Positions 11,815-41,376 of a stretch of 64,000 bases of DNA are shown piece after piece. Under the pieces are notes generated by a model. It saw only the letters and a program-made list of their open reading frames with translations, did no database searches and was not told the origin of the DNA. Every line of letters starts with the position of its first letter. Within the stretch, counting starts at the first letter, position 1. The stretch comes from Candidatus Nomurabacteria bacterium (lineage in GTDB: Bacteria > Patescibacteriota > Minisyncoccia > Phycocordibacterales > UBA9973). The stretch lies in NCBI GenBank assembly GCA_026396015.1, contig JAPLXP010000002.1, forward strand, positions 5,502 through 69,501. Reading direction: 5' to 3'. The translations under genes were made by a program, and so were the position numbers.

Positions 11815-11845
11815 AAAAAATGCCCCATAGGGCATTTTTTATTTT
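11815..11845. terminator. bidirectional terminator between HIT and pgk
   Basis: AAAAAA-TGCCC-CATA-GGGCA-TTTTTTATTTT hairpin flanked by an A-run and a T-run. Confidence 0.6.
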
Positions 11846-20035: not shown

Positions 20036-20074
20036 AAAAAACAGCTTCGATATTATTCGAAGCTGTTTTTTATT
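20036..20074. terminator. bidirectional terminator after pilB
   Basis: ACAGCTTCGA-ATATTAT-TCGAAGCTGT hairpin flanked by A-runs and T-runs. Confidence 0.6.
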
Positions 20075-20498
20075 TTAAATGCCCTGGATGATAACCTGCG
20101 TCAGCAATATATTCTTCTTTTTTTTCACCTTCTTCTGGAGTCATCAATTCATCTTTTTTGGAAAGCGTCTTTTCTAGCCAGATTTTATACAATTCACTCG
20201 TATAGACAGATGCAGTCGTCACAAACATTGGTACATCATAAGAATGAAGTCCTTCCAAAAATCCAATCAACTTTTCTGATAGTTCTTTTTGTGTTGTGAT
20301 CATGAGCATATATTGATCTACATCTTCGAGTACCCCATTCCATGGATACACTGATTCAATTGCCCAAAAATCTCCACATACTGCGAGATTGTTTTCTACC
20401 GCTGAACGAGCGAGACTCCTAGCCTCATCTGCATCACTACATGTCGTATATACAAAAACTGTATCTTTTATATTAGGATCTATTTTATCTGTAATCAT
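20070..20498 (-). CDS. CutA1 divalent-cation-tolerance family protein
   Basis: VFVYTTCSD..EA..LA...VE..LAVCG ... SVY.W.G ... HSYDVP matches the CutA pattern. Start set at MITDK. Confidence 0.65.
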   Translation of the reverse strand: MITDKIDPNIKDTVFVYTTCSDADEARSLARSAVENNLAVCGDFWAIESVYPWNGVLEDVDQYMLMITTQKELSEKLIGFLEGLHSYDVPMFVTTASVYTSELYKIWLEKTLSKKDELMTPEEGEKKEEYIADAGYHPGHLK

Positions 20499-20514
20499 AT
20501 ATAAATTATAACTC

Positions 20515-21741
20515 TTAATCTTTTTTATACAATAAAATAAAAAACACACCAGATAATATTATAGTCAAAGCGGCTATCAACAATGGAGTAGTCGGTGCGA
20601 GTGCAGCAGCGATGAACCCTGAGAGTATTGCTGGTATAGCTTGGGCTAGTGCCTGCACAGAAGAGCTAATACCCATGATTTCCCCTCTTTGATCAGCGGG
20701 TGCAGATTTTGAAAGCAGACTATTGATATTTGCCATTGTGAGTCCTGTACACACAGAGAAAAATGGAGGGATCAAAAGTAGCTGCCAAGTGTGATTTGGA
20801 AGAAAGTATGCCAATACCATGAACCCTGCACCAGATAGTGAGTATTTCAATATCTGCGGCTCAGTAAATTTCTTTGAAAATGCACGAGTTAGCACTGCTT
20901 GAGTAAACACACTCCAGATACCTACATAGGCAAAGAAGTCTCCGATATTACCTTGAGTAAAAGAAAATTTATTGATCAGGAATACACCAAAGAAAGTAGT
21001 GAAAAATGTAAAACCTCCAAAGAATAAAAAGTTTGTAAAGAATAATGCACTCATACCCTTCATCTGCATCGCACGCTTTATGTTTGATATTGATTTACCC
21101 CAAGTCAAATCTTCTGTTCGTAAATTTTTATTTGTCTCAGGTACTAGGAACAATACAGACAACATATTCACAAAAGCCAAGAATGCAGCAAAATAAAATG
21201 GTACAGCAGCAGTAAACCAAGACACGACTGATGGATCAGACAATTTACCTCCTATATATGGTCCAAATATAAAACCAAGACCAAATGCTGCACCTAGCAT
21301 TCCAAAATTCTTTGCTCTATTCTCTGGAGTAGATACATCCCCTATCATAGCCTGAGCGATAGAGATATTTCCACCAGTGATACCATCGAAAAATCTTGAA
21401 GCAAATAGCAATGGAATATTTTTTGTGATTATAGCTATGGCAAAGAGCACGTATGATATTGCAGTACCTAGTAGCGCTATGCTGAGTATCTTCCTTCTTC
21501 CGTATTTGTCAGACAACTGCCCTAGTATAGGTGTAGCTATGAACTGACCGATAGGATAAACAGCTATCAGCAATCCGAGCAGCATATATCCCTGATTCAG
21601 AGTGTAGCCAAATGGCAACATATAATCAGTAGATAGAGGGTTTGCAAATAATTGTGGTATGACTGGGATTAAAATACCGACCCCCAATAGATCGATAAAT
21701 ACGGTTAGAAAAATTGTAATTAGTATTTTATTTTTGAACAT
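20515..21741 (-). CDS. MFS transporter
   Basis: 12-TM profile with the MFS loop 2-3 signature ([11 protein letters not shown]). Confidence 0.85.
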
Positions 21742-21804
21742 TGTTCCACTGTACCACAAATATCGCCAATTCAAAATTGACGATACGATACAGGAGTTAC
21801 TATA

Positions 21805-24800
21805 TTATTCTACAGATGATGTGATAGTTTCTATTGTTTGTTCTGTTGATGGTATTATTGGAATTTCTGCTGGGGATACGACTCCTATTGCTGTTGTATT
21901 TGTAGGGGGGGCTACTTCTGTTACGGGACTTAAATTACTTGATCCCCCTGCCTGCAAAAGTAGTGCTTTGAATTGTTCTTTTGTAGCACAGACATCATCC
22001 ACACAAATTTTATCATCTATATGCAATACTCCTATTGTCATTTCTTTTGCAAAAGTAATTTGATCTTTCAAAAAAGAAACAATAAGTGTTCCCACAGAAT
22101 TTGATTTAGTTAAATCTAAAGATACAACATTTGATAATTTTAAATCTAAATCTTGTATTGATTTCACAAGCAGTGGAGTAAGTCTACCGTAGTCTACCAT
22201 CCATGGGGTAGATTCTGGTCCAAGAGGTACTAGACCATCGTCTCCATTTGTAGATACAGCGTATGGATACACTGTATCTAATTGCTGAGCAATAAAACCT
22301 TGTGTGGAAACATGACTTGAATCATTAATAAAATCAAAATCTACAACCTTTATTTTCAACAAATCATTGAGTCCTTTTGTAGTCAAAGGATTATTTAAAT
22401 CAAAATTTTCCTTCAAGCGAGCATCTGATGTTGTATTGTATGCAATAGTAGTAGCAGCATTTTGAGAAATACTTCCAATAACAGTGGCGTCTGGTCTCTG
22501 GAAGGTAATCATTTCTGATGAAGCTACTCCTGTATTATTACCTGCTAAAACAAGTAGTCCGTTGTTTTGAGTTACACCACCAAGAGTATTCGCGATTCTT
22601 GCTGTATGTGTACCTGCAGCTGGAGTATTGGTGACATGCAATCTATTTAAAATACTTCCACCATTTGTACCTATTCCTACATTTGCATTCGCATCAAAAT
22701 TCATAACATTAGTAGCACTACCAGATAATTGGAAGGCCAACTCAGCAGAATTACCTTTTACGGTATTAACTTTAACGGTAGACCCCGTAATACTACTAAC
22801 TGCCCAAAAATTAGTAGCATGAACATCACCAGAAACATTTAATTTATAACTGGGATCATAAAGACCTATTCCAACATTGCCATTAAAATAGGAAGGAGCT
22901 GTTGTCGCATTATAAAAAGCAAAACTTGTACCTGTCACAGTCGGCATTCCTGAAACATACACTCCATAACTGTTTACCACAGTACCACTTCCTCCGTTAT
23001 TAGAATTTGATACGTATAATCCATATTGATTGGTCACAGGGTTTATTGTCATATTTCTTGTTCTCAACTGAACACCATAAAGATTATCAACTGTTATGTT
23101 TTCACCGGTATTTCCAGCATCAGCAAAAATACTTGAACCAATAGCAGAACCCGTAGTACTATTGGTGGTTTTTTGATATTGCATAAAAAAGCCAACATTA
23201 GATGTATTTAAACCTGTATCTTGTGAATTAAATTGAATAAACCTACTACTCAATGCCCCAGACCGAACTGAATTTACATAGAGAGTAGAAGCAGTATTAT
23301 TATTATCCACATTATTTAAATACATATTACCTGCTGAATCAACTTTTAATTTACTTACACCATATGTCTGCATATTAAATAAATCCCCCACATAACCATT
23401 TGACTCATTTATTGCAAATGATGTACCAGAAGATGATCCGACAAAATGACCTGAGGATGTCCCATCAAACAGTCCACTACCGAGTGATACAGTTCCATAA
23501 CTACTAGAACTAGAAGAAGCATTAATATGTAATTCAGAAACAGGATCAGTAGAACCTAAGCCAATATGACCAAGTCTATCAATAGTCATGGCTGTATTAT
23601 TAATACCAGAACCATACGTATTTGTGGTACCAAATTGTAATTTACTTCCACCACCAGTTTGAATTGAAGCAATTCTAGATGAAGCGCTAGTTTCGTTTAC
23701 ACCACCCTGAAAATCAATTGTTGTGTAATTATTTGTACCAGAGATATTTCTAAGAAGAAGTGTACCAAAACCTGTCCCAGTAAAAGACGTGCGAGGTGTA
23801 CTCTCTTGTATTTGGAATTTTGTAACTGGTGTTGTAGTTCCAGCCCCGATATTCCCATTTCCTAAAACAGAAAATATTTTTCCTCCAACTAAAGAATATG
23901 GGGAGTAACTATTTGAATTAGTCCATGTGGTATCTGTTGTGAGACTCGTACTTGAATTAATTGCTGAAATTGTATGAGTCTCTCCATTTACTGTTATTGT
24001 GTCCCCTACTTTAAATGTATTAAAAAACAATGTGCCAGTATTACTTCCTGAGTTGCCTGTGACAGTCGCACTCCCTGAAACAGTATTTACAGTTCCTGGG
24101 CCAGTAGTACTTTGGCCAACTTGAAAGTTTGTATCTGGAGAAGAAGTCCCCACACCAACAACTTTATTTTGAGATACAGTCAAAATTGAATTTACATCAA
24201 GCAATCCAGCTGGACTATTGGTTCCAATACCAACATTTCCACTCACAATCATTCCGTTTAAAGGAGAAGCATTCACTCCGGCATAGCTACCAACAGACAT
24301 ACCACCATTTATATCAAATTTGGAAAGTGGACTTATTCCGACTCCAACTTTTCCTAATAACAAAGAATCTCCACTTGAATTCAAGGCAGAACCTACAACA
24401 GGACTAAATGTAGCAGTATTGTATATAAGTGTCCCAACTGCTTCATATCCAGCAGTATTAAGATGAATATTGTCCCCTGAATCATATTCAATTTTCAATG
24501 CATTAGGATTTTCAGAATCAACAAGAGCGGAGTAAGCATCTACTCGATAGTCAACATTGCGGGCGCTATTTTTAATCCAAGTATTTACATTATCAACAAC
24601 ACCTTGCCTTTGTATTGTCCAATAAGTACTTCCTTTCCAAGGGGTTATAGTAACAGCAATCACTTTCAATCCTGCAGCAGAAGCAGAGTCATACATAGCT
24701 TGCAAATTTTCCTCTATAATAGAAGCTGTAACATTACCTGAAGCATCATTTACCCCACCCCAAACAATCACATACTCAGCATCAGAATGAGAAGTAACAT

Positions 24801-25320
24801 CACTATTAAAACGTGCCAGCATTTGTCCTGTACCCTGACCAGGAATACCTTTATTATTTTCAGCCCAAGAAGAACCAAGTAAGGAAATTAATTTATTTTC
24901 ATAAACTCCACCGCTAGCAATATTACTATTACTGTAAGTCAAACTATCCCCCATCGAATATATCTGATGAGGTGAATTAAATTTATTTGAGGCTACAATA
25001 GATAATTTATTAGTTGGGCTATTTGTTCCTATACCCAATCTTCCATTAGTCGAATCCCAATACAACGAAGATGCCCATGCTGGATTGGTGCCATTGGTAT
25101 AGAAGAGTTTTCCTGCATTTCCTGTCTGATCAGGGAGAAGAGAAACATAACAAGTCGCATCGCTTGGAGGACAACTTGGATTTGTGATATGGTCAGCAGG
25201 ATAATAAACAGCGTAAACTTTTATTGCAGTGTAATTTGTGAATGAAAATACTGCCAATACAATAAATATACGAGTTAAAACATATTTGAATTTTTTCATT
25301 GACACAGTTTGTTTACTCAT
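21805..25320 (-). CDS. giant secreted surface protein: N-terminal SGNH/GDSL esterase domain, long Gly/Ser/Thr-rich region (possibly beta-helix), C-terminal intramolecular-chaperone (Peptidase_S74-type) domain
   Basis: Signal peptide; GDSL block MGDSLTYS; catalytic DNIHLN (DxxH). C-terminus TSDARLKENF...GFIAQQLDTVYPYAV matches the autoproteolytic chaperone domain of phage tail-spike/endosialidase proteins. Confidence 0.7.
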   Translation of the reverse strand: MSKQTVSMKKFKYVLTRIFIVLAVFSFTNYTAIKVYAVYYPADHITNPSCPPSDATCYVSLLPDQTGNAGKLFYTNGTNPAWASSLYWDSTNGRLGIGTNSPTNKLSIVASNKFNSPHQIYSMGDSLTYSNSNIASGGVYENKLISLLGSSWAENNKGIPGQGTGQMLARFNSDVTSHSDAEYVIVWGGVNDASGNVTASIIEENLQAMYDSASAAGLKVIAVTITPWKGSTYWTIQRQGVVDNVNTWIKNSARNVDYRVDAYSALVDSENPNALKIEYDSGDNIHLNTAGYEAVGTLIYNTATFSPVVGSALNSSGDSLLLGKVGVGISPLSKFDINGGMSVGSYAGVNASPLNGMIVSGNVGIGTNSPAGLLDVNSILTVSQNKVVGVGTSSPDTNFQVGQSTTGPGTVNTVSGSATVTGNSGSNTGTLFFNTFKVGDTITVNGETHTISAINSSTSLTTDTTWTNSNSYSPYSLVGGKIFSVLGNGNIGAGTTTPVTKFQIQESTPRTSFTGTGFGTLLLRNISGTNNYTTIDFQGGVNETSASSRIASIQTGGGSKLQFGTTNTYGSGINNTAMTIDRLGHIGLGSTDPVSELHINASSSSSSYGTVSLGSGLFDGTSSGHFVGSSSGTSFAINESNGYVGDLFNMQTYGVSKLKVDSAGNMYLNNVDNNNTASTLYVNSVRSGALSSRFIQFNSQDTGLNTSNVGFFMQYQKTTNSTTGSAIGSSIFADAGNTGENITVDNLYGVQLRTRNMTINPVTNQYGLYVSNSNNGGSGTVVNSYGVYVSGMPTVTGTSFAFYNATTAPSYFNGNVGIGLYDPSYKLNVSGDVHATNFWAVSSITGSTVKVNTVKGNSAELAFQLSGSATNVMNFDANANVGIGTNGGSILNRLHVTNTPAAGTHTARIANTLGGVTQNNGLLVLAGNNTGVASSEMITFQRPDATVIGSISQNAATTIAYNTTSDARLKENFDLNNPLTTKGLNDLLKIKVVDFDFINDSSHVSTQGFIAQQLDTVYPYAVSTNGDDGLVPLGPESTPWMVDYGRLTPLLVKSIQDLDLKLSNVVSLDLTKSNSVGTLIVSFLKDQITFAKEMTIGVLHIDDKICVDDVCATKEQFKALLLQAGGSSNLSPVTEVAPPTNTTAIGVVSPAEIPIIPSTEQTIETITSSVE

Positions 25321-25324
25321 ATGG

Positions 25325-26248
25325 TTATTGCATTAAATTTTTAATAAATTGATAAAAGCTTAGCGGAGTTGATTTGATATAATTTACAATTATACGAAAC
25401 CACGATTTTTTACTAAAATTGACATCTTGGGGTATTTCATTTTTCTCTGTAGTATTTTTAGGTTTAGTAATCTTTGGAGGCTGTTCGGGTGGAATAAATG
25501 AAGATAATATTGGTCCATCTGATATTTTTATTGATGTTTTTTTTGAATTTGTATTTTTTGTGTTTTTGTTGGTGGGAATTTTATCAATTAAAGCTGTCTT
25601 ATTTTTATTTGGATCTGGGTTTATCTCTGGTGTGATTATTGGGTGTCCACCGCTATTACCCCTTGGTCTGACTGAATATGGGATATAATCAGTCATTGTT
25701 TTAAAATTTATCGCTCCACAAGAATTATCATTACTGCAATTAAAAGAAATATATCCAAAAGATTGCGCCCAAGCATAACCAGCAAAAGTTCCATCAGAAT
25801 TAATTTTAACAGTTTGATCTCCAGCTCCAGTTGGAGCAAAATTTACCCAGCCAGTCTGCGGACCCCAAGCATAACCAGATAAATTACCATATTGATCCAC
25901 AGTCACCTTGTAATCCGAAGAGATACAAGACCCTGGAACATTTGAACAATTATAACTAATCCATCCAGTAGCAGAACCCCACATCCAACCATTTATTTCA
26001 AAATCAAAGATGTTTGCATTTTGTTCAGGTTGTACAGTAAATTTTCCAACATTTATTTCCTTTGAAATATTATTTAATCCACTATTAGTAATAAGATACG
26101 CCCTGTTGTAACCTAGATTAGTTGGATCAAATGTACCATTCGAATTACTGGCAAGGACGGATACAGGAGATATAAAAAGTGTACAAAAAATAAACAAAGA
26201 TATGTGGAAAATAAATTTTTGTTTTTCAGTAGAAAATCTGTATAACAT
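25325..26248 (-). CDS. secreted hypothetical protein with three G[WY]xWxxxxG[WY][IV][SN]F repeats and a Pro/Lys-rich C-terminal tail
   Basis: Signal peptide MLYRFSTEKQKFIFHISLFIFCTLFISPVSVLA. Repeats: GWMWGSATGWISYNC, GYAWGPQTGWVNFAP, GYAWAQSFGYISFNC. Confidence 0.5.
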   Translation of the reverse strand: MLYRFSTEKQKFIFHISLFIFCTLFISPVSVLASNSNGTFDPTNLGYNRAYLITNSGLNNISKEINVGKFTVQPEQNANIFDFEINGWMWGSATGWISYNCSNVPGSCISSDYKVTVDQYGNLSGYAWGPQTGWVNFAPTGAGDQTVKINSDGTFAGYAWAQSFGYISFNCSNDNSCGAINFKTMTDYIPYSVRPRGNSGGHPIITPEINPDPNKNKTALIDKIPTNKNTKNTNSKKTSIKISDGPILSSFIPPEQPPKITKPKNTTEKNEIPQDVNFSKKSWFRIIVNYIKSTPLSFYQFIKNLMQ

Positions 26249-26304
26249 AATAGTATTATACCTTTTTGTATGACAAAAAACAAAAATATGTCTATAATAC
26301 AAAA

Positions 26305-27228
26305 ATGCAAATAGGAACAATGATTTTAACAGTTTTAGGTCTTTGTCTTTTTGAGATAATCTCAAGTATAGACAATGCAGTTATCAATGCCGAAGTATTA
26401 GGGACAATGGGTAAAACGGGTCGTAGATGGTTTTTGACTTGGGGATTTTTCTTTGCCGTATTCGTAGTGCGAGGACTACTCCCATGGATTATAGTTTGGG
26501 CTACAGTGCCGTCTCTCGGACCAATAGGAGCATTTACTGCGACATTCTCCAATGACCCAAGTATTCACAATGCAATCGAGTCTTCATCACCAATACTACT
26601 GATGGGTGGTGGAATATTCTTAATATTTCTATTCTTTCACTGGCTATTCCTCGAACCAAAAAATTTCGGATTACGAGGAGAAAGATTCTTTCAAAAAAAT
26701 GGTGTTTGGTTCTTTGCTGTAGTCTCTATCATCCTATCTATCGTAGTATGGAACACATTAAAGATAAATAGTATGCTAGCTTTTGGAGCAATCATTGGAT
26801 CTACTGCATTTTTTATCACACATGGATTCAAAGAAAACGCTGAAAGAAGTGAGAAGAAATTGCTTTCAGGTGATAACAAAATGAGTGATCTATCAAAGAT
26901 TTTATATCTAGAAATCATAGATACTACATTCTCTATCGATGGAGTGCTCGGTGCATTTGCCTTTACGCTGTCTATACCACTGATTATCATTGGTAATGGA
27001 TTGGGTGCTTTTGTCCTCAGGCGTCTAACAATGCACAATATAGATCGCATAAAAATGTATGCGTACCTGAAGAATGGAGCGATGTATTCTATTGGAGCAC
27101 TCGGTATAATCATGATCGCTGATGGATTCGGTATTCATATTCCAGCATACATCTCCCCTATTATTACTTTTGTTATCATCGGATATTTCTTCTGGAAATC
27201 AAAAATAGCTCTAAATACTAAAATATAA
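26305..27228 (+). CDS. TerC/DUF475-family integral membrane protein
   Basis: EIISSIDNAV motif in TM1, polytopic; an alternative start lies at 26266. Confidence 0.5.
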   Translation: MQIGTMILTVLGLCLFEIISSIDNAVINAEVLGTMGKTGRRWFLTWGFFFAVFVVRGLLPWIIVWATVPSLGPIGAFTATFSNDPSIHNAIESSSPILLMGGGIFLIFLFFHWLFLEPKNFGLRGERFFQKNGVWFFAVVSIILSIVVWNTLKINSMLAFGAIIGSTAFFITHGFKENAERSEKKLLSGDNKMSDLSKILYLEIIDTTFSIDGVLGAFAFTLSIPLIIIGNGLGAFVLRRLTMHNIDRIKMYAYLKNGAMYSIGALGIIMIADGFGIHIPAYISPIITFVIIGYFFWKSKIALNTKI

Positions 27229-27232
27229 AATA

Positions 27233-27270
27233 AAAATATCCCCGGATAAAACCGGGGATATTTTTATTTG
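27233..27270. terminator. bidirectional terminator
   Basis: ATATCCCCGG-ATAAAA-CCGGGGATAT hairpin followed by a T-run. Confidence 0.6.
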
Positions 27271-27274
27271 TATA

Positions 27275-27820
27275 TTATTTCCTAGACATGTATTTATAAT
27301 TTGAAAGAATCAAAATCATAAATACACCCATAGAGAATGCCATCACAGGCATAGTCACATATCCAAATTCATATATATATCGAATTGCACATGACACTTC
27401 AGTAGTACTACCTGTAGAACAGGCCAGATTTGCAGCACCACCATTCTCTACATATATATGGAACAATGAAATCATAGTCCCCACAAAAGCTAATACTAGA
27501 GAATAATCTACAATCATCTTTTCCTTTTTATAAAGTTCCATACCAAATAAAATCACTTGTGGATAAATAAATATTCTCTGCATCCAACACAGTTCACAAG
27601 GAGGAAATCCTACAACACTCGAATAGAACAATGACAAAGCTGTAGCACCCAATGCAGTAAGAAATCCAATAATGAAAGTATAATCATGCAGGAATTTCAA
27701 AAATGCATTGTCTCTTTTTCTAAAAAAAAGAAAATTAGCAACTATAATAAAACAAAATATTTGGAGTGCGATAGTACCTAGGGATAAAATGTAGTTTAAA
27801 TTTTCTACGTATGCAGGCAT
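27275..27820 (-). CDS. disulfide bond formation protein DsbB/BdbC family
   Basis: Four TM helices with a CxxC pair in the first periplasmic loop (PCELCWMQR). Confidence 0.7.
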   Translation of the reverse strand: MPAYVENLNYILSLGTIALQIFCFIIVANFLFFRKRDNAFLKFLHDYTFIIGFLTALGATALSLFYSSVVGFPPCELCWMQRIFIYPQVILFGMELYKKEKMIVDYSLVLAFVGTMISLFHIYVENGGAANLACSTGSTTEVSCAIRYIYEFGYVTMPVMAFSMGVFMILILSNYKYMSRK

Positions 27821-27821
27821 A

Positions 27822-28406
27822 TTACTGAGGAAGTGTAAATTTAATCTGCTCTGCTAAAAAGTTAAGAGGAATTTCTCCTGTAGCAAAAGAACTATTGTCG
27901 AACTTCCATGTACCAGCGGTTACTATCGGATCCTTTACACTTTTAATTGAAAATTTGTAATCTGAAAAAATCCAAGTACGAGCATATGCAGAGTGAACAT
28001 TGGCACAAATATCGGGTTCACCTTTTATTGATTCTCCTGTTGGACTCGCAGCACACACAGTAGGATTCTTGTCAGAAGAAGTAAGTGATATACCATCTTT
28101 AAATCTCCATGATGGGAAACTTTCAATTTTGTTATCTAGACAGATTTGAGTTGTCTTTCTGTCTGCAGTTGAACATTCAACATATGGCAAATACTGTTTT
28201 GCACTACCAAATTCTGCTTTTTGAGCCTGACAATGCGGGCACCAGAATGCACCGAAGAACTCTGCTCCATTACTCTTTAAAGCTTTTGCAAAGTCGTCAT
28301 ATTTACTAGGACCAGCAGCCCTATTAGCAAGAAAACCCAATCCAACAACCAGAATAATAATACCAACAATAGAAACGATAAATATAGCCTGTTTTGATTT
28401 CATCAT
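27822..28406 (-). CDS. membrane-anchored thioredoxin-fold thiol-disulfide oxidoreductase (DsbA/BdbD-like)
   Basis: N-terminal TM anchor and WCPHC active site; immediately upstream of the DsbB-like gene. Confidence 0.7.
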   Translation of the reverse strand: MMKSKQAIFIVSIVGIIILVVGLGFLANRAAGPSKYDDFAKALKSNGAEFFGAFWCPHCQAQKAEFGSAKQYLPYVECSTADRKTTQICLDNKIESFPSWRFKDGISLTSSDKNPTVCAASPTGESIKGEPDICANVHSAYARTWIFSDYKFSIKSVKDPIVTAGTWKFDNSSFATGEIPLNFLAEQIKFTLPQ

Positions 28407-28428
28407 ATATGTATTATATCAAAATTAG

Positions 28429-30552
28429 CTAATTAAAAATAGATACGAAACTCTTAAAAGCATGAGCTATACCACTGAATATACCACCCATAAACTTGTA
28501 AATCTTGTCTGAAACATCAGAGTTAGCAGCACTAGCAGATAGATTTACCTTGCTTGATTGATCTGATGATTTTACTGCATCTTTGTTTTGGATTGTTATT
28601 GTTTTATTTTGTACAACCTGATTAGTCTTTTGAATTTTAGCAATTTCCTTTGTTTTTATTGGAAGAATTTCTTTGTTTGTTATTTCAGGAATTTTTTCAA
28701 CTAAATCATCTTTTTTAACGGTGACTTCCTCTTTTTTAATTTCCTTTTTTATCTCAATTGAGCCGCCGCCAGAAGCAACAATCGGTGTAATATATTTACC
28801 AAAATTATTTAAACTATTACTAAAACTCTTGTGCATTATTGCTGGTATGGCGTAGCTAGTAGACCAAATACGATTAGATATATCGGAATTTATATCCTCC
28901 ATTCCCCCATCTATTTGTTGATTTTTTGCTAAATAATTTTCTGCTCGTGTCACATTCAAGGACAAAGAATTATTTAGACTCATTGCCTGAAGAGCCCAGC
29001 TAGTAGAAAAATTATTACCAAAACCACCGTTTGATTGATTTTGATTTATTATCAAATAATTCTCAGCTCTATTAATCGCATCAGAATTACCTCCATAAAA
29101 TCTTAAAGCTTGAAGGCCAGCAGCAGTCATATCAGCACTATCACTCCAAGATCCATTTGGCAGTTGATGTCCGACAAGATACGATATATCTTTTGATATA
29201 AAATCATCTTCTTGTGTATATCCAGATTTTCCGAGAATTATCAATCCAAAAATATCATCATTGATTAAATTTGCGTCCCCAATCTGAGTACCATCAAAAG
29301 ATTTTACTATTTTATCTATATAGTTAATACTTGTACCATTATAAGGACTAATTCCTAGCGCTGATAGTGCCATAGCATGACGCTCATTGTCTGTAATAAC
29401 ATCTGAGTTGAAAGCATTATTCTGTAAATAATTTTTTAATTTCACAACAAATGGTGCATTGGAAATACCAGCAGAAATAGCAACCCAATCGGTATAGAGA
29501 GTATCACCAAACGAGCCATCTGGATTCTGTTTGCTCAACAAAAAATTATTTGCATTTGATATTGAAAAAGTTGGAACTGGAATTCCACCTCCTCCACCTG
29601 AAGATACAGGCAGTATAGTGATATCCAAAGAATATGGAACATACAGTGTTTTAGATCCGGTAGCTTTAAATGCGCCATCTTCATTCATAATAAGAGAACA
29701 TGTTCCATCTGATACAGTAGAACAAGATTGACCTCCAATTGAGATTACAACATCCGAAGATGGTGTCCAAATCATATTAAAATTTGAATCATAAGTACTC
29801 TTTTCCTCAGCAGTGAATACAATAGTATCACCAATAGTACCAGAATATTTATCTGCAGAAATTTTCAATGGATAAGAATTGTAAGTTAAAACAATTTGCT
29901 CTTCATCCTGTAATATGTGTTGATTTAGTCCAGTAGAACCAGAATTTAAATCTTCATATTTTATTTGATAAAACCAGCCCCAGTATTTTGAATAATCAGA
30001 AGCAGTTGAATAAGTACCAAGCTCGTCCATCCAACCACTTGGTGCATAATCCCAAGTCCAAGTATTTGATAACCCAGATTGTTCTACAGCACATTTACCA
30101 TTGATTGTTCGAATACCACTATTTGGTGATTCTTCGCAAGCATTCACAGTCTCAGTGCCGTCAAACAATACTGCATCCCCCGCATATGCCTTCAGTACTA
30201 TTGTCACAGGAGTCGGGTCTACTATCACTGTCCTCTTTACCTCAACGGCAGAATTTAATGAAAAATCTTTCACATTATAGGAAACAGAATAATGGCCGAC
30301 AGTATTTGTATCTATACTACTAATCGAAATAATATTTGAGGAAATATCACCATCAACATCATCGAGGGCTGTCGCACCTGAATCAACATATACATCACCT
30401 TTATTTATATAAACAATTGAATCCCCTGATAGTGAAATGATTGGGGCCGTAGTATCTAATGGCGGATTAGAAGCTGGCTCTTCTGCCTGAGCAATAGATC
30501 CGATAAAAATAAAAGCTAGTATCAATATTGAGTTTAAAAATTTGTTTTTCAT
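28429..30552 (-). CDS. large secreted protein: signal peptide, Ig-like (DUF5011-type) domain, beta-rich region, then a prenyltransferase/squalene-cyclase-type alpha/alpha-toroid repeat domain
   Basis: Signal peptide MKNKFLNSILILAFIFIGSIAQA. DVDGDISSNII...GHYSVSYNVKD Ig-like block. Four repeats of the Q..DG[SG][FW] type (KQNPDGSFGD, HQLPNGSWSD, NQNQSNGGFGN, NQQIDGGMED). Confidence 0.6.
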   Translation of the reverse strand: MKNKFLNSILILAFIFIGSIAQAEEPASNPPLDTTAPIISLSGDSIVYINKGDVYVDSGATALDDVDGDISSNIISISSIDTNTVGHYSVSYNVKDFSLNSAVEVKRTVIVDPTPVTIVLKAYAGDAVLFDGTETVNACEESPNSGIRTINGKCAVEQSGLSNTWTWDYAPSGWMDELGTYSTASDYSKYWGWFYQIKYEDLNSGSTGLNQHILQDEEQIVLTYNSYPLKISADKYSGTIGDTIVFTAEEKSTYDSNFNMIWTPSSDVVISIGGQSCSTVSDGTCSLIMNEDGAFKATGSKTLYVPYSLDITILPVSSGGGGGIPVPTFSISNANNFLLSKQNPDGSFGDTLYTDWVAISAGISNAPFVVKLKNYLQNNAFNSDVITDNERHAMALSALGISPYNGTSINYIDKIVKSFDGTQIGDANLINDDIFGLIILGKSGYTQEDDFISKDISYLVGHQLPNGSWSDSADMTAAGLQALRFYGGNSDAINRAENYLIINQNQSNGGFGNNFSTSWALQAMSLNNSLSLNVTRAENYLAKNQQIDGGMEDINSDISNRIWSTSYAIPAIMHKSFSNSLNNFGKYITPIVASGGGSIEIKKEIKKEEVTVKKDDLVEKIPEITNKEILPIKTKEIAKIQKTNQVVQNKTITIQNKDAVKSSDQSSKVNLSASAANSDVSDKIYKFMGGIFSGIAHAFKSFVSIFN

Positions 30553-30556
30553 ATAA

Positions 30557-31027
30557 TTAAAATGATTCTTGCTTCCAGGTGACGACATCGCCTGATTTAA
30601 TTTTATTTTTGGACACTCCCATACTTGCCTTTTTACCATCCAGATAATAGAGCCAATATTTCCCCGGTGTACCAGGTACTCCATTGATACTATCCACAAA
30701 ATTCCCCAAGCTACTGTACTCCTTTGAATGAAAAGAAAATCCCGAATTTTTATCATTGTTTAGCTTTTCCATGGCATTGTATACTGTACTACCTGGATCA
30801 ACCATTATTTGATATGAATTGTCCCCTACTTCTATCTTTACACTCTCTGTATTTTTATCAACTTTATCTATACTTTTTTTCTCTTCAGTCGGTTTTACGA
30901 TTTCTTTTTTAATAACATTTTTTTGAATGATACTTTTGTTTTTTGTCTTTGCAAATGCAACGTTCGAAAAAGACAAAATCATTACCAAAAAAATGAAAAC
31001 TATTTTATTTATTTTTTTATATGTCAT
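30557..31027 (-). CDS. small secreted protein with a DUF4430-like (transcobalamin C-terminal beta-domain-like) module
   Basis: Signal peptide. C-terminal GKYWLYYLDGKKASMGVSKNKIKSGDVVTW matches the W.Y.VNG...G...LKDGD.V.W hallmark from memory; domain assignment not computed. Confidence 0.5.
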   Translation of the reverse strand: MTYKKINKIVFIFLVMILSFSNVAFAKTKNKSIIQKNVIKKEIVKPTEEKKSIDKVDKNTESVKIEVGDNSYQIMVDPGSTVYNAMEKLNNDKNSGFSFHSKEYSSLGNFVDSINGVPGTPGKYWLYYLDGKKASMGVSKNKIKSGDVVTWKQESF

Positions 31028-31257
31028 TTTTATGCGGAATTAATCCTGTTAAATAATAAAAACTCCTGCGCGAGCAGAAGTTTTTATATCCTTTTTAACA
31101 AAGAGATTTCCTGCTCGGGTAAACAATTTATATATTAAGATCGGACTTGTCTCTTGCGAGCTTTACCGTTGCGGCACAGTGGAGGAATGTATCCGTCTAT
31201 TTACATAGATTAGGATGAACCTCACTTCCAAACATATAAACTTAAATTTTAAATGAA
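31028..31257 (-). promoter_or_regulatory. long structured leader ending in an intrinsic terminator, directly upstream of the DUF4430 gene; possibly riboswitch-like
   Basis: Minus-strand transcript carries blocks resembling the cobalamin-riboswitch core (CCGCAACGGTAAAG; CCCGAGCAGGAAATC), then a CTTCTGC-TCGC-GCAGGAG hairpin plus U-run about 30 nt before the start codon. No canonical B12 box seen. Confidence 0.3.
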
Positions 31258-31779
31258 TTACACTCGGACAATTTCAGGGATACTTACCAATATATCACTT
31301 TCCTTCATCACCCATTTTTCAATCATTGGTGAGAGAACTATAGCAAAGGATACATTGGAAAGCAAATGAATAGCAGTGAATGGAATCTGCCCAAGAACTG
31401 CAGACATGAATGGCTGGCCAAAGAATATCGGACCCATAGTCAAACCTGTAGCAGCATCAAATGCGATAGTCGCTACGAATGCGTATTTTGCATAATTCTT
31501 CCAGCCAGTACGATTCTTGAAATAGAGACTAGCCCCAATACCTACCAATCCATAGGATAGACCTGCGATGAGTGTCCACACACCGAATCCTGCAGTCACA
31601 GAATCATATAGTACGATAGACAAAAAGCCAAATAGGAATGCATACACACTTCCGTATTTACGTGATAGTGGCATTTGCATAGCCATAATAGGCTCCAGAT
31701 TTGGAGCCCTAAATGGTACTAGTCGGACTAGTAGTCCTACTATAAACAGAGATATAATTTTGATCGGATTTTTCTTCAT
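31258..31779 (-). CDS. small five-TM membrane protein, possibly an ECF-type substrate-capture (S-component-like) vitamin transporter
   Basis: 173 aa with five predicted TM helices and no other domains; directly downstream of nrdJ and upstream of the DUF4430 module. Confidence 0.3.
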   Translation of the reverse strand: MKKNPIKIISLFIVGLLVRLVPFRAPNLEPIMAMQMPLSRKYGSVYAFLFGFLSIVLYDSVTAGFGVWTLIAGLSYGLVGIGASLYFKNRTGWKNYAKYAFVATIAFDAATGLTMGPIFFGQPFMSAVLGQIPFTAIHLLSNVSFAIVLSPMIEKWVMKESDILVSIPEIVRV

Positions 31780-31792
31780 ACGTTTTTATAAC

Positions 31793-34162
31793 TTACACTA
31801 TATCGCAAACTCCTGCAACACAAGCCAGTTCTTTCTTTACTTCTGTCTCATCACGTAGCTCATAAGTCACAATCTTTGAGAAATCAAATTCTGGCATACG
31901 ACTTGTGAGTTCGTTGTACATCTTTTCACTGATAGCCTCGTACGGAGCTAGTTGATACACGTGATTTGAGCGTGGAAGGAATGATAGACCTCCTACGATA
32001 TCCCAGTTCTGATATAGCCAGTGTGCGACTTTGATCCATTCATTTTCCCCTACTGAGATAGTCACAGAAGGATTGTGCTCTGTATAATTTACCTTTACGA
32101 TCTTCCAGTGTTCTAGCTGATCAATAGCAGAGATGTCATCCTTACAGATAGCACCATCTGGAGCCTTCATTGGGAATTCCAATACAAAAGTATTCGCATC
32201 TTCATGAGACTGCCCTACTTCTGGATGAAATGGTACCCCTTGATCCTTCATCATCTTGAATAGTGAGTCAGTAGCAGAGATACGCACACGACGGATATAG
32301 AATGGTGAGTGACGTGGGTGCATACCTGATGCACAGTCCACAGTCTGGGACACAGTACCAGAAGGCTTTACAGCTGTGATACATGTTGACTCACTTACAC
32401 CAAATTTCTTTGCATAAATCTTGTTGATACGGATAGACTCAAGGCGGAGCTTTTCTAGCATTTTTGCATCACGAGCAAGAGTTGAGTCCCATTGTCCAGT
32501 CACAGATACACCAAGGAGTCTTTCCTCATCACAATTCTCTTTCCATTCCTTTGAAAGGTATCCAAATTTTGTAAGAGTAGATTGGTATGTACCTAGTATT
32601 GTAGCTACACGAATTTTTCTCATTAAAGTTTTTTCAGTATCCTCTGCACGAGCTACAACTTCTGAAAGATTACAGAATTGTTTTGAACGGAGGATGATCT
32701 CTCCACAAGGATTTGTACCCATCTCCCCTATAAAATCTGCAGACTTTTCTACACGTCTTTTTGGTAGTGATGTAGTTAGTGATCCACGGTTAAATATTCC
32801 ACGTTCACCTGTACCTGATTCCATCAATGCGATCCATTCTTTTAGGAATTCAGTCTCTGTTGGTTTTGTATTGTAAACTGCTGAGTTATTTGCAAGCATT
32901 CTCTGGCCTTCTGCATTCCAGAACTGACCATTCTTTGCATCACGCATATCCTGATCATCTAGATCAGATAATGATATTAGAGCTGAACGACGTACTCCTC
33001 CAGATACTACACATTCACCAATCTTACAGATGATATCGTGCGCATCGATATTTCGAAGATGTCTTCCTTGACGACGAATTATTCTCTCCCTAGTAAAACC
33101 TAGTAGGTCAATGAGTGGTTTTGGACCAGAACTCTTGCCTCCCATAATCTTAAGTCTTGCGCCAGATGGACGAAGTTGTGAGAAATCAAAATTTACATCT
33201 TCACCGTTGAACCATGTCTTCATACCAAATACGAGTGCATCTGCCCATCCTTCTTTTGTATCAGGCACTACATATGTAGGAACTTTTTTACCTGTCTGAG
33301 TTTTTATCTGAGGTAGTGATTGGATATTCTGACTCTCTACAGAGAATCCTACTCCTGTACCACACATAGAGATATAAACTATCTCTCCGAAGTCTTGGAA
33401 TTTTGAAGGTGCGATGAATGAACAGTTGTATGCACACACATTTGTCTTCTCTGCTGCAGGACCTGCAAATTGAAGTAGACGCATAGAAGGCATAGCCTCT
33501 TGCTTTAGAATACCCTCACGAACTTCTGCATACTCTTCAGCAGATAACATGTTTGAAAGTTTACCCTTCATGAATTCCATATAGCGATCTACCGTCTCGA
33601 TCCATGTCTCTCTGCGATTCTGATCCTCAATCCATTTTGCATAAGTACGGTAATAGACGAATTCAGAAAGTGGATTTCTAAAATATTGTTTACTATCATC
33701 TGCAAGTTTCTTTACGCGAGCTGGTACAGACATACTATGTGAACGGAGACGTGCACGCTCCTCACGATACAATATGTAGTGCTTTGAAGTTCTGACATAA
33801 TCAGAGAGCATCAATTCTTGTTCTACACTATCCTGTATACCCTCTACTGTAGGGATAAAGTTTTTGTATTTCTTTGCAATTTTTATCATGTCCATCAAAA
33901 CACGACTAGCCACTAGATGCGCCTCTTCTATTGATCCCTCACCTGCGGCAATCATAGCTTTATTAATAGCATTCGTAATTTTTTCAATATCAAATGCTAC
34001 AGTTGATCCGTCACGACGTTGAACACTCTTAATAAAATTATTTTTTATTTTTATTTCTGTTTTTTTAACAGGAGCTGCCTCTACTTTTTCAACAACCTCT
34101 ACTTTTTTCGCGACCACTTTCTCCCTCTTTGTAGCTTTAACTACTTTCTTTTTTGATGGCAT
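31793..34162 (-). CDS. nrdJ: class II (adenosylcobalamin-dependent) ribonucleotide reductase with N-terminal ATP-cone and a Lys/Glu/Val-rich N-terminal extension
   Basis: Active-site TNPCGEI, ATP-cone (VQRRDGSTVAFDIEKITNAINKA). Start set at MPSKKK downstream of a near-consensus promoter. Confidence 0.85.
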   Translation of the reverse strand: MPSKKKVVKATKREKVVAKKVEVVEKVEAAPVKKTEIKIKNNFIKSVQRRDGSTVAFDIEKITNAINKAMIAAGEGSIEEAHLVASRVLMDMIKIAKKYKNFIPTVEGIQDSVEQELMLSDYVRTSKHYILYREERARLRSHSMSVPARVKKLADDSKQYFRNPLSEFVYYRTYAKWIEDQNRRETWIETVDRYMEFMKGKLSNMLSAEEYAEVREGILKQEAMPSMRLLQFAGPAAEKTNVCAYNCSFIAPSKFQDFGEIVYISMCGTGVGFSVESQNIQSLPQIKTQTGKKVPTYVVPDTKEGWADALVFGMKTWFNGEDVNFDFSQLRPSGARLKIMGGKSSGPKPLIDLLGFTRERIIRRQGRHLRNIDAHDIICKIGECVVSGGVRRSALISLSDLDDQDMRDAKNGQFWNAEGQRMLANNSAVYNTKPTETEFLKEWIALMESGTGERGIFNRGSLTTSLPKRRVEKSADFIGEMGTNPCGEIILRSKQFCNLSEVVARAEDTEKTLMRKIRVATILGTYQSTLTKFGYLSKEWKENCDEERLLGVSVTGQWDSTLARDAKMLEKLRLESIRINKIYAKKFGVSESTCITAVKPSGTVSQTVDCASGMHPRHSPFYIRRVRISATDSLFKMMKDQGVPFHPEVGQSHEDANTFVLEFPMKAPDGAICKDDISAIDQLEHWKIVKVNYTEHNPSVTISVGENEWIKVAHWLYQNWDIVGGLSFLPRSNHVYQLAPYEAISEKMYNELTSRMPEFDFSKIVTYELRDETEVKKELACVAGVCDIV

Positions 34163-34265
34163 ATTTTTTCTAAAATTAATGATAAATTGCACTTTTAATA
34201 CTTTGGACTATTATTATACCGCCGTCAAAATTGCATGCCAATACCCAAAACAACCAAAAAAGCAC
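34141..34265. repeat. copy A of a 125-bp direct repeat (nrdJ 5' region including the first six codons)
   Basis: About 85 percent identical overall to 35141-35266, with a 48-nt perfect core ATACTTTGGACTATTATTATACCGCCGTCAAAATTGCATGCCAATACC. Confidence 0.85.
34204..34232 (-). promoter_or_regulatory. sigma70-type promoter of nrdJ (copy A)
   Basis: On the minus strand: -35 TTGGCA, 17-nt spacer, -10 TATAAT, about 40 nt upstream of the nrdJ ATG. Confidence 0.55.
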
Positions 34266-34866: not shown

Positions 34867-35157
34867 TTAAAACAAATCTGCATGACTACCTATATCTAAT
34901 AAAATTAATATCAAAATATTTTTATCTATCTTGTAAATCAGTAGTAAGTCTGGTTTTATATGGCATTCCCTGTATCCATCATACTCCCCATGCAATTTGT
35001 GATCTTTATGCTTTAAATGTAAAGAATCACCCGAAGCTAATGTATCTAAAACTTTATCAATATCAGTAATTTTAACCTTTCCACTAGAAAGTATTTTCTC
35101 GAGAGATTTTTGATATCTTTTATTCTGAATTATTAAATATTTCTTTTTTGATGGCAT
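34867..35157 (-). CDS. yafQ: type II toxin-antitoxin system toxin, YafQ/RelE family
   Basis: C-terminal YDGYRECHIKPDLLLIYKIDKNILILILLDIGSHADLF matches the YafQ signature. The N-terminus MPSKKK is identical to nrdJ because of the duplicated 5' region. Confidence 0.75.
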   Translation of the reverse strand: MPSKKKYLIIQNKRYQKSLEKILSSGKVKITDIDKVLDTLASGDSLHLKHKDHKLHGEYDGYRECHIKPDLLLIYKIDKNILILILLDIGSHADLF

Positions 35158-35266
35158 AGTTTTTTATTGTTAATGATAATGTATCCTCCGATACTTTGGA
35201 CTATTATTATACCGCCGTCAAAATTGCATGCCAATACCTAAAACGGACAAAAAACACTATGTCGGA
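35141..35266. repeat. copy B of the 125-bp direct repeat, between the dinJ-like and yafQ-like genes
   Basis: Carries the same -35 TTGGCA / -10 TATAAT promoter (35205-35233) and CTTTTTTGATGGCAT (MPSKKK) start as copy A. Confidence 0.85.
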
Positions 35267-35273
35267 CACATTT

Positions 35274-35549
35274 CTATTTATAAAAATCTTTTCCAATTAT
35301 ATCTTCATGCATTTCACGAGCACTATTATATCTTTTCCCATTCTTAAGAGCATCCTCCACTTCCCTATCCCATTCTGCACGAATAGCAGCAGGATTCTTA
35401 GTCGGCTTGAAAGGTATACCATTCTCATTTACAACTTGATTTAAAAACAATTTAATTCCAGACGACAAATCCAGACCCATAGACTCGAGAGTCTTTTGAG
35501 CTTTATCTTTAGTCTTTTTTTCTATTCTTATATTAATTGTTGTATTCAT
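35274..35549 (-). CDS. dinJ: type II antitoxin, DinJ/RelB family
   Basis: MNTTINIRIEKKTKDKAQKTLESMGLDLSSGIKLFLNQVVNENGIPF matches the RelB/DinJ ribbon-helix-helix antitoxins. Confidence 0.75.
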   Translation of the reverse strand: MNTTINIRIEKKTKDKAQKTLESMGLDLSSGIKLFLNQVVNENGIPFKPTKNPAAIRAEWDREVEDALKNGKRYNSAREMHEDIIGKDFYK

Positions 35550-35603
35550 ATTACTAGTATATACAATGTACATACATTGTCAAGACATTACTCATGTATA
35601 ACA

Positions 35604-40458: not shown

Positions 40459-40875
40459 CTATTGGATCGTACTTGTTTCCTCACTTATGAACTCATCTAC
40501 TGAAAATGGACCAGCTCCGAGTAGTGATATTGCGAATGTAGCACCTGCTAGTCCTATATCTCTCACACCAGTAGGATCTATGCCTATAGATGCAGCTATA
40601 CCAAACAAATGCAGAGCCAGCAATAATGCTACAGGTCGCACATATGCACCCAGCACTAGCAATACAGCACTGATAATCTCGAACCATCCATTGAGTAATA
40701 CAAATTTGTATTCTGATATAGGTAGACTCCCTACCCAACTTGGTAAGTAGCTCGTCCACATACTAGCATTCCCTAATTGAGCAAAACCAAAGTAGAAAAA
40801 CACAAATGCAAACACTAGACGTAGAATAACAGGAGCACTAGCTTTTGCAATTAAATTTAATTTAGAATTTTCCAT
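40459..40875 (-). CDS. DoxX-family membrane protein
   Basis: Four-TM DoxX profile. Confidence 0.7.
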   Translation of the reverse strand: MENSKLNLIAKASAPVILRLVFAFVFFYFGFAQLGNASMWTSYLPSWVGSLPISEYKFVLLNGWFEIISAVLLVLGAYVRPVALLLALHLFGIAASIGIDPTGVRDIGLAGATFAISLLGAGPFSVDEFISEETSTIQ

Positions 40876-40878: not shown

Positions 40879-41376
40879 TTAATTCGTGAGATTTCCTATT
40901 TTAAAACTTGCGAGTTCTGACGCTGGACGACGCTGACCACCATGCTGACCATTGAATGCATCTGACCCATCAATACCACAAAGAGAAAGGATTGCTCTTG
41001 ATCCTCCTGGGTGCTGACTGATAAATGAAGTCACGTCGTACACATTGCCATTCACAGCCGTCCAACAAGATGAAGCAGAGGCGTGCTTTGCAACATCATC
41101 CAATGTGTATCCTGACTTTACAACTGGAGCTGGAGTAGGCTTTGGTGTCGGTGTCGGTGTTTTTGGAGTATTAGTAGCTGGGGTATTAGAAGCCGGTACA
41201 TTATTCACCACAGGGACATTGGATGCCGGAGTAACACTTGAATTAACAACATCAATATTTTTGTATTGGTTATTAAAATTACCGCCCTTAGATGCGGGGT
41301 CTGACTTTAATAAAATAACACCACCTCCAATAATAAATATCGCAATAGCGACTAAACCAATCATTTTTTTATTCAT
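40879..41376 (-). CDS. membrane-anchored cytochrome b5-like heme/steroid-binding domain protein with a Pro/Thr-rich linker
   Basis: C-terminal domain HASASSCWTAVNGNVYDVTSFISQHPGG...GQHGG matches the cyt-b5 fold signature. Confidence 0.7.
   Translation of the reverse strand: MNKKMIGLVAIAIFIIGGGVILLKSDPASKGGNFNNQYKNIDVVNSSVTPASNVPVVNNVPASNTPATNTPKTPTPTPKPTPAPVVKSGYTLDDVAKHASASSCWTAVNGNVYDVTSFISQHPGGSRAILSLCGIDGSDAFNGQHGGQRRPASELASFKIGNLTN

Follow-up and report, generated by a model that had tools for sequence, protein, structure and literature searches.

A 64,000-nucleotide stretch of the Candidatus Nomurabacteria contig JAPLXP010000002.1 (positions 5,502 to 69,501; hereafter the window) carries a gene string that probably encodes a corrinoid capture module, repressed by vitamin B12 and so induced by starvation for it, and attached to the operon of nrdJ, the gene for an adenosylcobalamin (AdoCbl)-dependent ribonucleotide reductase. 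The concept of such a module is already known, and what is new here is an example from the Patescibacteria with unusually strong regulatory and contextual support.

The genes of the string all lie on the minus strand, co-oriented and tightly packed. The first is nrdJ itself (31793-34192), whose product combines an N-terminal ATP cone with class II ribonucleotide reductase domains and matches PF03477, PF17975, PF21995 and PF02867. It is followed by the gene for a 173-aa membrane protein (31258-31779) that resembles the S components of energy-coupling factor (ECF) transporters, as judged from its AlphaFold2 (AF2) model, Foldseek and a weak PF07155 match, and is a likely corrinoid permease, and then by a 230-nt gap (31028-31257) which holds an AdoCbl riboswitch. 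Beyond the gap come the genes for a stand-alone secreted DUF4430/SLBB protein of 156 aa (30557-31027; PF14478) and, after a spacing of 1 nt, for a 708-aa surface protein (28429-30555) composed of a signal peptide, an immunoglobulin-like (Ig-like) domain, an SLBB-like domain, a second Ig-like domain, an alpha/alpha toroid, a linker and a C-terminal helix. The last two genes encode a membrane-anchored thioredoxin-like protein with a CPHC motif, a DsbA/BdbD-like partner with a weak PF00085 match (27822-28406; E 2e-3), and a DsbB/BdbC-type disulfide oxidoreductase (27275-27820; PF02600, E 1e-12), and the operon ends at a strong bidirectional terminator (27228-27269; 18-bp stem, T-runs on both strands). 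The original prediction had named this string of genes downstream of nrdJ, and all of them are present; it had overlooked the riboswitch that occupies the gap.

Judged from sequence and its conservation, the identity of the element at 31096-31255 (minus strand) as an AdoCbl riboswitch is nearly certain. At Rfam gathering thresholds a scan of the whole window returns tRNAs only, and a permissive scan yields a full-length match of the aptamer to RF01482 with 40.1 bits (E 8.7e-5 in 8 kb, 3.4e-6 in 311 nt). The aptamer starts 3 nt past the stop codon of the 173-aa gene and is followed by an intrinsic terminator hairpin with a U-tract (31056-31087, minus strand; 14-bp stem), the putative expression platform, and then by the DUF4430 gene, which starts at 31027. 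The hairpin, read from 31087 to 31056, has a z-score of -3.25 against shuffles, and together with its T-run it is conserved with compensatory changes across relatives that have the window's own gene order (type A below; alignment A3). Similarly, an alignment of the spacers of 23 type-A relatives displays a near-invariant core, GGAAGTGAGGT ... CCTCCACTGTGCCGCAACGGTAA ... AAGTCCGATCTT, with compensatory changes in P1 and in the variable hairpin.

These 23 orthologous spacers were used to build a covariance model, which was run against both strands of the window and 85 related loci (1.45 Mb). It gave 71 matches, each of which sits on the coding strand with the DUF4430 or large gene immediately downstream; the rest of that sequence has none. 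The matches fall in 70 of the 85 related loci, 48 of them lie outside the training set, and 28 of the riboswitch-bearing loci are without nrdJ in their flank. Among the 15 related loci without a match, seven have no upstream DNA and L079 has only ~160 nt of it. Furthermore, curated Rfam models from three cobalamin classes exceed their gathering scores at these coordinates in 13 of 21 related loci checked: RF01482 in nine loci (L063 61.1, L022 58.8, L054 58.5, L019 56.6, L055 54.5, L077 54.4, L042 53.8, L072 53.7 and L061 53.6 bits), RF01689 in two (L006 54.3 and L016 42.5 bits) and RF00174 in two (L011 39.9 and L003 36.0 bits). Covariation was tested on 52 aligned elements with 500 shuffles and with controls in which the pairing partners were slid. 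Compensatory changes occur in 17 of the 30 pairs, no shuffle (0/500) reaches any observed measure, and paired cells make up 90.6% of the observed alignment compared with 75.8% in shuffles and 28-46% with partners slid. In three loci (L045 2308-2375, L049 7103-7202 and L070 9741-9804) the riboswitch-like match, which covers the model only in part, stands after the small DUF4430 gene and before the large one instead of ahead of the small gene.

The riboswitch and its terminator are predicted to control, by switching, the DUF4430, large, thioredoxin-like and DsbB genes. A promoter-like site upstream of nrdJ, TTGGCA-17-TATAAT (34213-34241, minus strand; 11/12 matches in a consensus scan), is the best in the region, as a pattern match only, and since the aptamer begins 3 nt past the S-component stop codon, this site is the presumed start of the transcript that runs into the riboswitch. 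A riboswitch placed in the middle of an operon in this way would keep the enzyme and the permease on while switching the capture proteins.

The gene neighbourhood in relatives points to the same cofactor. Relatives of the large protein were found in 319 species-representative genomes in one scan, and the best 80 of these 319 mostly carry Patescibacteria labels, with some labelled 'Saccharibacteria' or 'Gammaproteobacteria', the last of which is doubted; of the 318 homologues of the large protein that were found, all named ones are from Patescibacteria. Neighbours were counted in a tblastn census of related loci, limited to those with enough flanking sequence. Of the 72 loci whose upstream sequence reaches 1.2 kb or more, 69 have the small DUF4430 gene immediately upstream of the large one. 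Where at least 5.5 kb upstream is available (58 loci), nrdJ stands in the upstream flank in 42, and the flank holds an S component in 36 and pduO, the gene for an ATP:cob(I)alamin adenosyltransferase, in 10. Downstream sequence is available for 64 loci, with the thioredoxin-like gene in the flank in 37 and DsbB in 33.

These neighbours recur in several arrangements. The window's own order, type A (nrdJ, S component, riboswitch, DUF4430, large, thioredoxin-like, DsbB), is complete in 24 cases; type B (S component, nrdJ, pduO, riboswitch, DUF4430, large) accounts for ten; and in type C the riboswitch-led pair stands by itself in twelve cases, with a further six in which the Dsb pair is close by on the opposite strand. 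A variant cluster in L004 (4638-10377) runs nrdJ, large, pduO, DUF4430, DUF6580, and a riboswitch was not detected there; its DUF6580 membrane protein resembles the window's S component only distantly, at an hhalign probability of 67%, and the two have an R-L-x-P...P-N-x-x-P motif in common. In addition, all three independent look-ups made from homologues of the S component led to genes adjoining nrdJ. The linkage of both a user (nrdJ) and a maker (pduO) of AdoCbl to the capture genes in different orders argues for function rather than inherited synteny. As such, the connection to cobalamin that the original prediction had drawn holds across the family, with riboswitches in 70 of 85 loci and nrdJ or pduO as neighbours in at least two gene orders.

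The same evidence bears on the nature of the ligand. Neither fold nor family membership fixes it, and a preprint on the related Lactobacillus sakei operon Lsa1836-1840 ties that operon to haem uptake, with docking that accommodated haem (10.1101/864751), so that capture of another tetrapyrrole such as haem could be envisaged here too. However, cobalamin-class riboswitches control the genes in 70 of 85 loci, and the genes are embedded with nrdJ and pduO in a cluster that contains nothing related to haem, which makes a haem-like ligand highly improbable.

The 156-aa protein is a clear member of the DUF4430 family. PF14478 matches residues 79-154 over profile positions 1-71 of 72 (E 2e-14; 54.2 bits against a gathering score of 23.8), in agreement with the DUF4430-like C-terminus that had been read from its sequence, for which the correct accession is PF14478 and not PF15461 as first given. 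Signal peptides are visible in both surface proteins by reading of the sequence and not by a dedicated predictor, that of the small protein ending after AFA and before K; homologues align from the same start, and both proteins are judged to be secreted or on the cell surface. For the large protein the start was set at the ATG at 30555, which yields the signal peptide and aligns from residue 1 with the homologue P0004; the longest open reading frame (ORF) of the gene is 775 aa and overlaps the DUF4430 gene. Searches of the small and large proteins against PDB sequences with phmmer gave no meaningful match.

An AF2 model of the 708-aa protein built with 62 homologues has a mean predicted local distance difference test score (pLDDT) of 84, with confident domains and a predicted template-modelling score (pTM) of 0.50. 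Its domain order is Ig-like, beta domain, Ig-like, twelve-helix alpha/alpha toroid, disordered linker and C-terminal helix, all encoded on the minus strand. The first Ig-like domain (aa ~30-113; 30217-30468) matches PF16403 (Bact_surface_Ig-like; E 2e-17) and has beta strands with pLDDT above 90. It is followed by a beta domain with C140 and C155 (aa ~114-236; 29848-30216) and by a second Ig-like domain with C278 and C286 (aa ~237-316; 29608-29847), which is all-beta with pLDDT ~90 and belongs to no Pfam family. The toroid (aa ~330-585; 28801-29568) is free of cysteine. A Lys/Glu-rich linker of ~80 aa, disordered in the AF2 model at 599-681, leads to the C-terminal helix (aa 683-707 in the model; 28435-28509), and P0004 and the A2 consensus both retain this C-terminal segment. 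The Ig-like domain and four toroid repeats ascribed earlier to this protein are therefore both present, the first through PF16403 (E 2e-17) and the second as four Q-x-x-[DN]-G-[SG] repeats. At its end the family has a conserved L-[ST]-A-S-A-A stretch followed by an amphipathic or hydrophobic helix, and from its sequence this helix may be a membrane anchor or sorting signal.

The beta domain between the two Ig-like domains decides how the capture proteins are to be read. By sequence comparison it is probably a diverged SLBB/DUF4430 domain, identified through homologues and hhalign only. Pfam finds nothing in the isolated domain (aa 117-233), even at E 10, and a hidden Markov model (HMM) of 73 small DUF4430 proteins has no match to the window's large protein. 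The same HMM matches the region of the internal domain in several homologues of the large protein, and PF14478 scores above threshold at the internal position in P0004 (27.4 bits), P0025 (32.6 bits) and P0053 (42.4 bits). In P0004, which is 47% identical over its full length, the match covers residues 181-228, aligned to window residues 174-226. Furthermore, hhalign of the family sub-alignment of aa 114-236 against the domain of the small proteins gives a probability of 95.2% and E 2.6e-8, over the C-terminal 48 columns only. All 62 sequences compared keep C155 and 46 of them keep C140, and retention of the invariant C155 argues that the internal SLBB is functional. The large protein thus probably unites an SLBB of its own with a toroid, so that both halves of a transcobalamin-type binder would lie in one chain (SLBB, Ig, toroid). 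The 156-aa protein would then be a further SLBB paralogue that stands alone, and not the missing half.

The binder had originally been described as split, and a strictly two-protein version, in which the toroid receives its beta half in trans from the 156-aa DUF4430 protein and the internal beta domain takes no part in holding the ligand, is conceivable but doubtful. It draws on the position of the small gene directly upstream of the large one in 69 of 72 loci (1 nt apart in the window), on the 54 bits of the small SLBB to the Pfam consensus compared with no direct match for the internal domain, and on the split alpha/beta pair proposed in L. sakei (10.1101/864751). However, the internal domain is homologous to SLBB (95% by hhalign) and scores PF14478 in homologues, its invariant C155 (62/62) argues that it is functional, and a fused SLBB-toroid protein with an extra paralogous SLBB is a described architecture (PMC1796856). 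Three loci, L033, L057 and L062, moreover have the riboswitch and the large gene with no detectable small gene. With an SLBB of its own N-terminal to the toroid, supported by hhalign at 95% and by homologues that score PF14478, the large protein does not fit the split arrangement.

The large protein does have the alpha6/alpha6 toroid fold, and its toroid shows weak Pfam matches to SQHop_cyclase_C, TED, Prenyltrans and Cobalamin_bind. When isolated it scores 29 bits for SQHop_cyclase_C and 29.5 bits for TED_complement, both just above their cut-offs; a partial PF01122 (Cobalamin_bind) match covers only profile positions 219-289 of 317, and several homologues of the large protein carry precomputed PF01122 matches. 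The toroid fold is generic, and structure alone leaves the ligand undecided. Two enzymatic readings of the toroid were rejected. A thioester of the TED/alpha2-macroglobulin kind fails on the absence of cysteine and of a CGEQ motif, the toroid being without cysteine in 58 of 62 homologues, the window's included. A class II terpene cyclase fails on secretion of the protein and on the lack of DxDD, the window reading I-N-D-D. Beside this, an N-D-D-I-F motif (aa 432-436; window ~29245-29262, minus strand) is strongly conserved (D433, D434 and F436 in 62/62, N432 in 60/62), and D at position 431 in 12 of 62 homologues gives a DxDD-like string as in class II terpene cyclases.

More broadly, the toroid protein could be an enzyme of the surface or a component of the envelope that is repressed by B12 and binds no corrinoid. 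It might then resemble a terpene cyclase, a glycosidase or alpha2-macroglobulin and take part, for example, in a B12-independent back-up or in envelope remodelling. This is very unlikely, as secretion makes a cyclase role improbable, I-N-D-D provides no DxDD and a cysteine-free toroid provides no thioester. In addition, the toroid has SLBB domains of the transcobalamin clade both in its own chain and in a partner protein and comes near to a Cobalamin_bind match, and riboswitch-repressed genes beside a permease fit uptake.

The putative permease, the 173-aa protein, has an S-component fold according to its AF2 model, in which six helices (pLDDT 86, pTM 0.80) replace the five transmembrane segments counted originally. 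The top 22 PDB matches in Foldseek are all ECF S components (FolT, RibU, ThiT, PanT), the best with TM-scores of ~0.6-0.7, and the B12-specific CbrT ranks 40th. PF07155 matches at E 1.3e-4 with 22.4 bits, below its cut-off of 26.7, and 40 of 43 close homologues match the same family at E 0.01 or better (best 7e-9), with two matching DUF6580. The protein is conserved at ~60% identity across many Patescibacteria. Its best PDB sequence match is CbrT (6FNP_A), weak at a single-sequence E of 0.087; hhalign against 6FNP_A reaches a probability of 90% over 61 columns only, with P-N-x-x-P and G-x-W-T-L motifs in common, and a profile of the S-component family searched against the PDB gave nothing significant (CbrT E 3.3). 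The protein is likely a corrinoid permease.

The cofactor has a recognisable client in the window. The best NCBIfam match of NrdJ is TIGR02505 (adenosylcobalamin-dependent ribonucleoside-triphosphate reductase) with E 6e-83 and 279 bits, below the 340-bit cut-off, and this ribonucleotide reductase is the only recognisable B12 client within the window. A PduO-type ATP:cob(I)alamin adenosyltransferase (52097-52651, minus strand; PF01923, E 7e-43) is encoded ~20 kb from the capture genes, unlinked to them in the window and within the cluster in relatives. Scans of ~47 window ORFs, which were not exhaustive, found no Cob/Cbi (corrin-biosynthesis) genes and no ECF A/T genes, and the sole ABC ATPase among these ORFs adjoins MacB/FtsX genes. 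The earlier picture of an AdoCbl-requiring reductase and a PduO enzyme in a window lacking corrin genes is thus borne out by these scans.

The disulfide genes proposed at the end of the string are also present, as the thioredoxin-like CPHC protein and the PF02600 protein. The latter scores 49.1 bits against a PF02600 cut-off of 22.1, matches NF002849 at E 1e-28 with 100 bits, below the 124-bit cut-off, and has paired cysteines at 75/78 and 134/144. Their rationale had been overstated: in place of the many extracytoplasmic cysteines first supposed, the 708-aa protein has four (C140, C155, C278, C286) and the 156-aa protein none. The probable task of the thioredoxin-like oxidase and DsbB is to make the one or two disulfides that are conserved in the large protein. 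Directly upstream of PduO lies a gene for a VKOR-family protein (52653-53081, minus strand; PF07884, E 9e-22); beyond the DsbB of the capture operon, the organism thus possesses another disulfide-forming system.

The data presented so far show which genes and domain homologies are present, the riboswitch with its terminator and conservation, and the linkage of the genes; from this setting we infer corrinoid binding, a hand-over between the proteins, the direction of regulation and the relation of the Dsb pair to its client. The transcript would probably start upstream of nrdJ, so that NrdJ and the six-helix S-component-type permease would always be made. With AdoCbl plentiful, the bound riboswitch would let the terminator form and transcription would end there; with AdoCbl scarce, read-through would reach the genes for the small SLBB, the large SLBB-toroid protein, the thioredoxin-like oxidase and DsbB. 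By homology to transcobalamin, the surface protein may clamp a corrinoid between toroid and SLBB, both of which would be displayed at the cell surface by the Ig-like spacers and the long flexible tether. The small SLBB might act as an alternative lid or as a shuttle that brings the ligand to the permease. The thioredoxin-like/DsbB pair would probably form the C140-C155 bond, and the C278-C286 bond where those cysteines are present, and PduO would turn the imported corrinoid into AdoCbl for NrdJ.

Several points weigh against this interpretation. The window's riboswitch, at 40.1 bits, falls below the RF01482 gathering score of 50, a lower score that is attributed to a 33-nt hairpin insertion in this copy. 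Seven related loci with upstream sequence show no detectable riboswitch, and a permissive Rfam rescan of four riboswitch-negative loci was still negative. PF01122 reaches 24.8 bits for the isolated toroid and 21.7 for the whole protein against a cut-off of 25. The inter-domain geometry of the AF2 model is uncertain (pTM 0.50), and the transcobalamin-like clamp is thus a prediction only. The ~47 ORFs scanned include no ECF energising module in the window to power the S component. The literature searched holds no report of cobalamin binding by a bacterial member of the SLBB and toroid family, and the only experimental study of a related operon, that in L. sakei, argued for haem uptake (10.1101/864751).

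The destination of the captured corrinoid may also differ. It might be hoarded or stored at the surface, or withheld from host and neighbours in competition, without feeding the permease. The long tether and surface display would suit a reservoir, ~30% of loci have the pair with no transporter nearby, and a surface B12 reservoir is reported in Bacteroidetes (10.1101/2025.07.01.662609), such a role having been proposed for Bacteroides BtuJ1. However, induction at B12 scarcity, as predicted, and the frequent co-location with an S component, nrdJ and pduO fit import, and storage and import are compatible with each other; storage in place of import is unlikely. Within the import reading preferred here, a more specific and decidedly speculative version is a minimal extracellular B12 relay, in which a freely secreted, cysteine-free SLBB 'cobalophore' would gather corrinoid from the host cell or its environment and pass it to the tethered SLBB-toroid receptor and this in turn to a solitary S component that works without an ECF ATPase. 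Expression of the extracellular part would be confined to AdoCbl starvation by the mid-operon riboswitch, with ribonucleotide reductase as the sole client of the cofactor. If this were true, host-derived B12 would act as a gate on the DNA synthesis of these epibionts.

A number of neighbouring features were recorded alongside the operon. Between DsbB and CutA1 (20070-20549) the window has ~6.7 kb (20515-27228) that encode a major facilitator superfamily transporter, a 1171-aa GDSL-lipase/Peptidase_S74 protein, a 346-aa orphan and a plus-strand TerC/DUF475 gene. The relatives L001 and L087 lack it and have CutA1 and the type IV pilus genes immediately behind DsbB; L086 lacks it too, with no more than a 44-aa ORF in its place. 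The stretch looks like an insertion. On the minus strand, two ORFs of 96 and 99 aa between a NUDIX gene and EF-G (34867-35573) look, from sequence, like a toxin-antitoxin pair. Also on that strand are a cyclodipeptide synthase (44165-44821; PF16715, E 2e-31) and a protein in which a hydrophobic N-terminal segment is joined to a cytochrome b5-like haem/steroid-binding domain (40879-41376; PF00173, E 4e-19) and which adjoins a DoxX membrane protein (40459-40875). Among the related loci, L035 has a group I intron just downstream of the large gene (11841-12090, minus strand; RF00028, 61 bits, above the gathering score).

Other bacteria and animals offer several systems for comparison. In Bacteroides, BtuG, BtuH and BtuJ are lipoproteins of the diderm outer membrane that deliver to the TonB-dependent BtuB, and their loci are controlled by B12 riboswitches. 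The B12-binding folds of these proteins are unrelated to those of the window proteins, BtuG being a beta-propeller. The likeness is one of function: BtuG, BtuH and BtuJ are reported to capture corrinoids at the surface, to be encoded with a transporter and to feed a membrane importer (PMC6143338, PMC10404256). Mammalian transcobalamin, intrinsic factor and haptocorrin (PF01122 and PF14478; PDB 2BB6, 2PMV, 4KKJ) are built as a toroid followed by an SLBB domain, whereas the window has the reverse order of SLBB, Ig and toroid. The large protein of the window also differs from these carriers in its extra Ig domains, tether, anchor and stand-alone SLBB partner, and is ~12-16% identical to them. TCN (transcobalamin-family) proteins have DUF4430 in their C-terminal region, and isolated SLBB proteins of this family exist in fish (PMC4350170).

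For the permease, the closest parallel in gene order is the nrdJ-cbrS-cbrT-pduO cluster of Lactobacillus delbrueckii, which encodes the B12 transporter ECF-CbrT (eLife 2018; PMC5997447; PDB 6FNP). As in the family of the window, a B12 S component stands there beside nrdJ, and pduO is in the cluster, as it is in the type-B relatives. The S component of the window has only marginal similarity to CbrT, however, with FolT and RibU closer by structure, and the window contains no ECF module. BtuM, a solitary importer of B12 with the S-component fold and no ECF module (Nat Commun 2018; PMC6072759), is a precedent that would explain the absence of EcfA/T near the window's S-component gene. The cobalt ligand of BtuM is a cysteine (PMC6072759), whereas the 173-aa protein has no cysteine, and PDB searches detected no sequence match between the two.

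The L. sakei operon Lsa1836-1840 resembles the window in placing toroid and DUF4430/beta-domain proteins side by side with an S component, and its Lsa1840 (alpha-like)/Lsa1839 (beta-like) heterodimer was modelled on haptocorrin and transcobalamin (10.1101/864751). The preprint treats this pair as truly split and makes the case for haem as substrate; a complete ECF A/T module accompanies the pair (10.1101/864751). In contrast, the toroid protein of the window has its own SLBB, and the genes have a cobalamin riboswitch and nrdJ and pduO as neighbours.

The nearest relatives of the module are the bacterial extracellular SLBB and alpha/alpha-toroid proteins that were predicted to be B12 scavengers by Burroughs, Balaji, Iyer and Aravind (Biol Direct 2007; PMC1796856), in work that was purely computational. 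The capture system had been presented as novel in the original prediction, but proteins of its kind were predicted in that 2007 study, and the L. sakei preprint reports a split alpha/beta pair (10.1101/864751). The 2007 systems and the window alike have a signal peptide, an SLBB N-terminal to the toroid and Ig-fold fusions and, often in the former, a second paralogous extracellular SLBB in the operon; the 2007 systems occur in organisms without B12 synthesis and with ECF-type transport genes nearby, and the window matches them almost point for point (PMC1796856). It differs from them in coming from the Patescibacteria, in its lone S-component-like partner with no CbiO/CbiQ nearby, and in its nrdJ operon, mid-operon AdoCbl riboswitch and own thioredoxin-like/DsbB pair. 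No description of the SLBB-toroid system or its riboswitch in Patescibacteria was found in the literature searched. The Patescibacteria, or candidate phyla radiation, have tiny genomes and depend on other cells, their acquisition of cofactors is poorly understood, and the capture module is a concrete and widespread candidate route for their supply of B12. Its compact, riboswitch-backed proteins also provide targets for a first biochemical test of the 18-year-old prediction of bacterial transcobalamin-like B12 binders.

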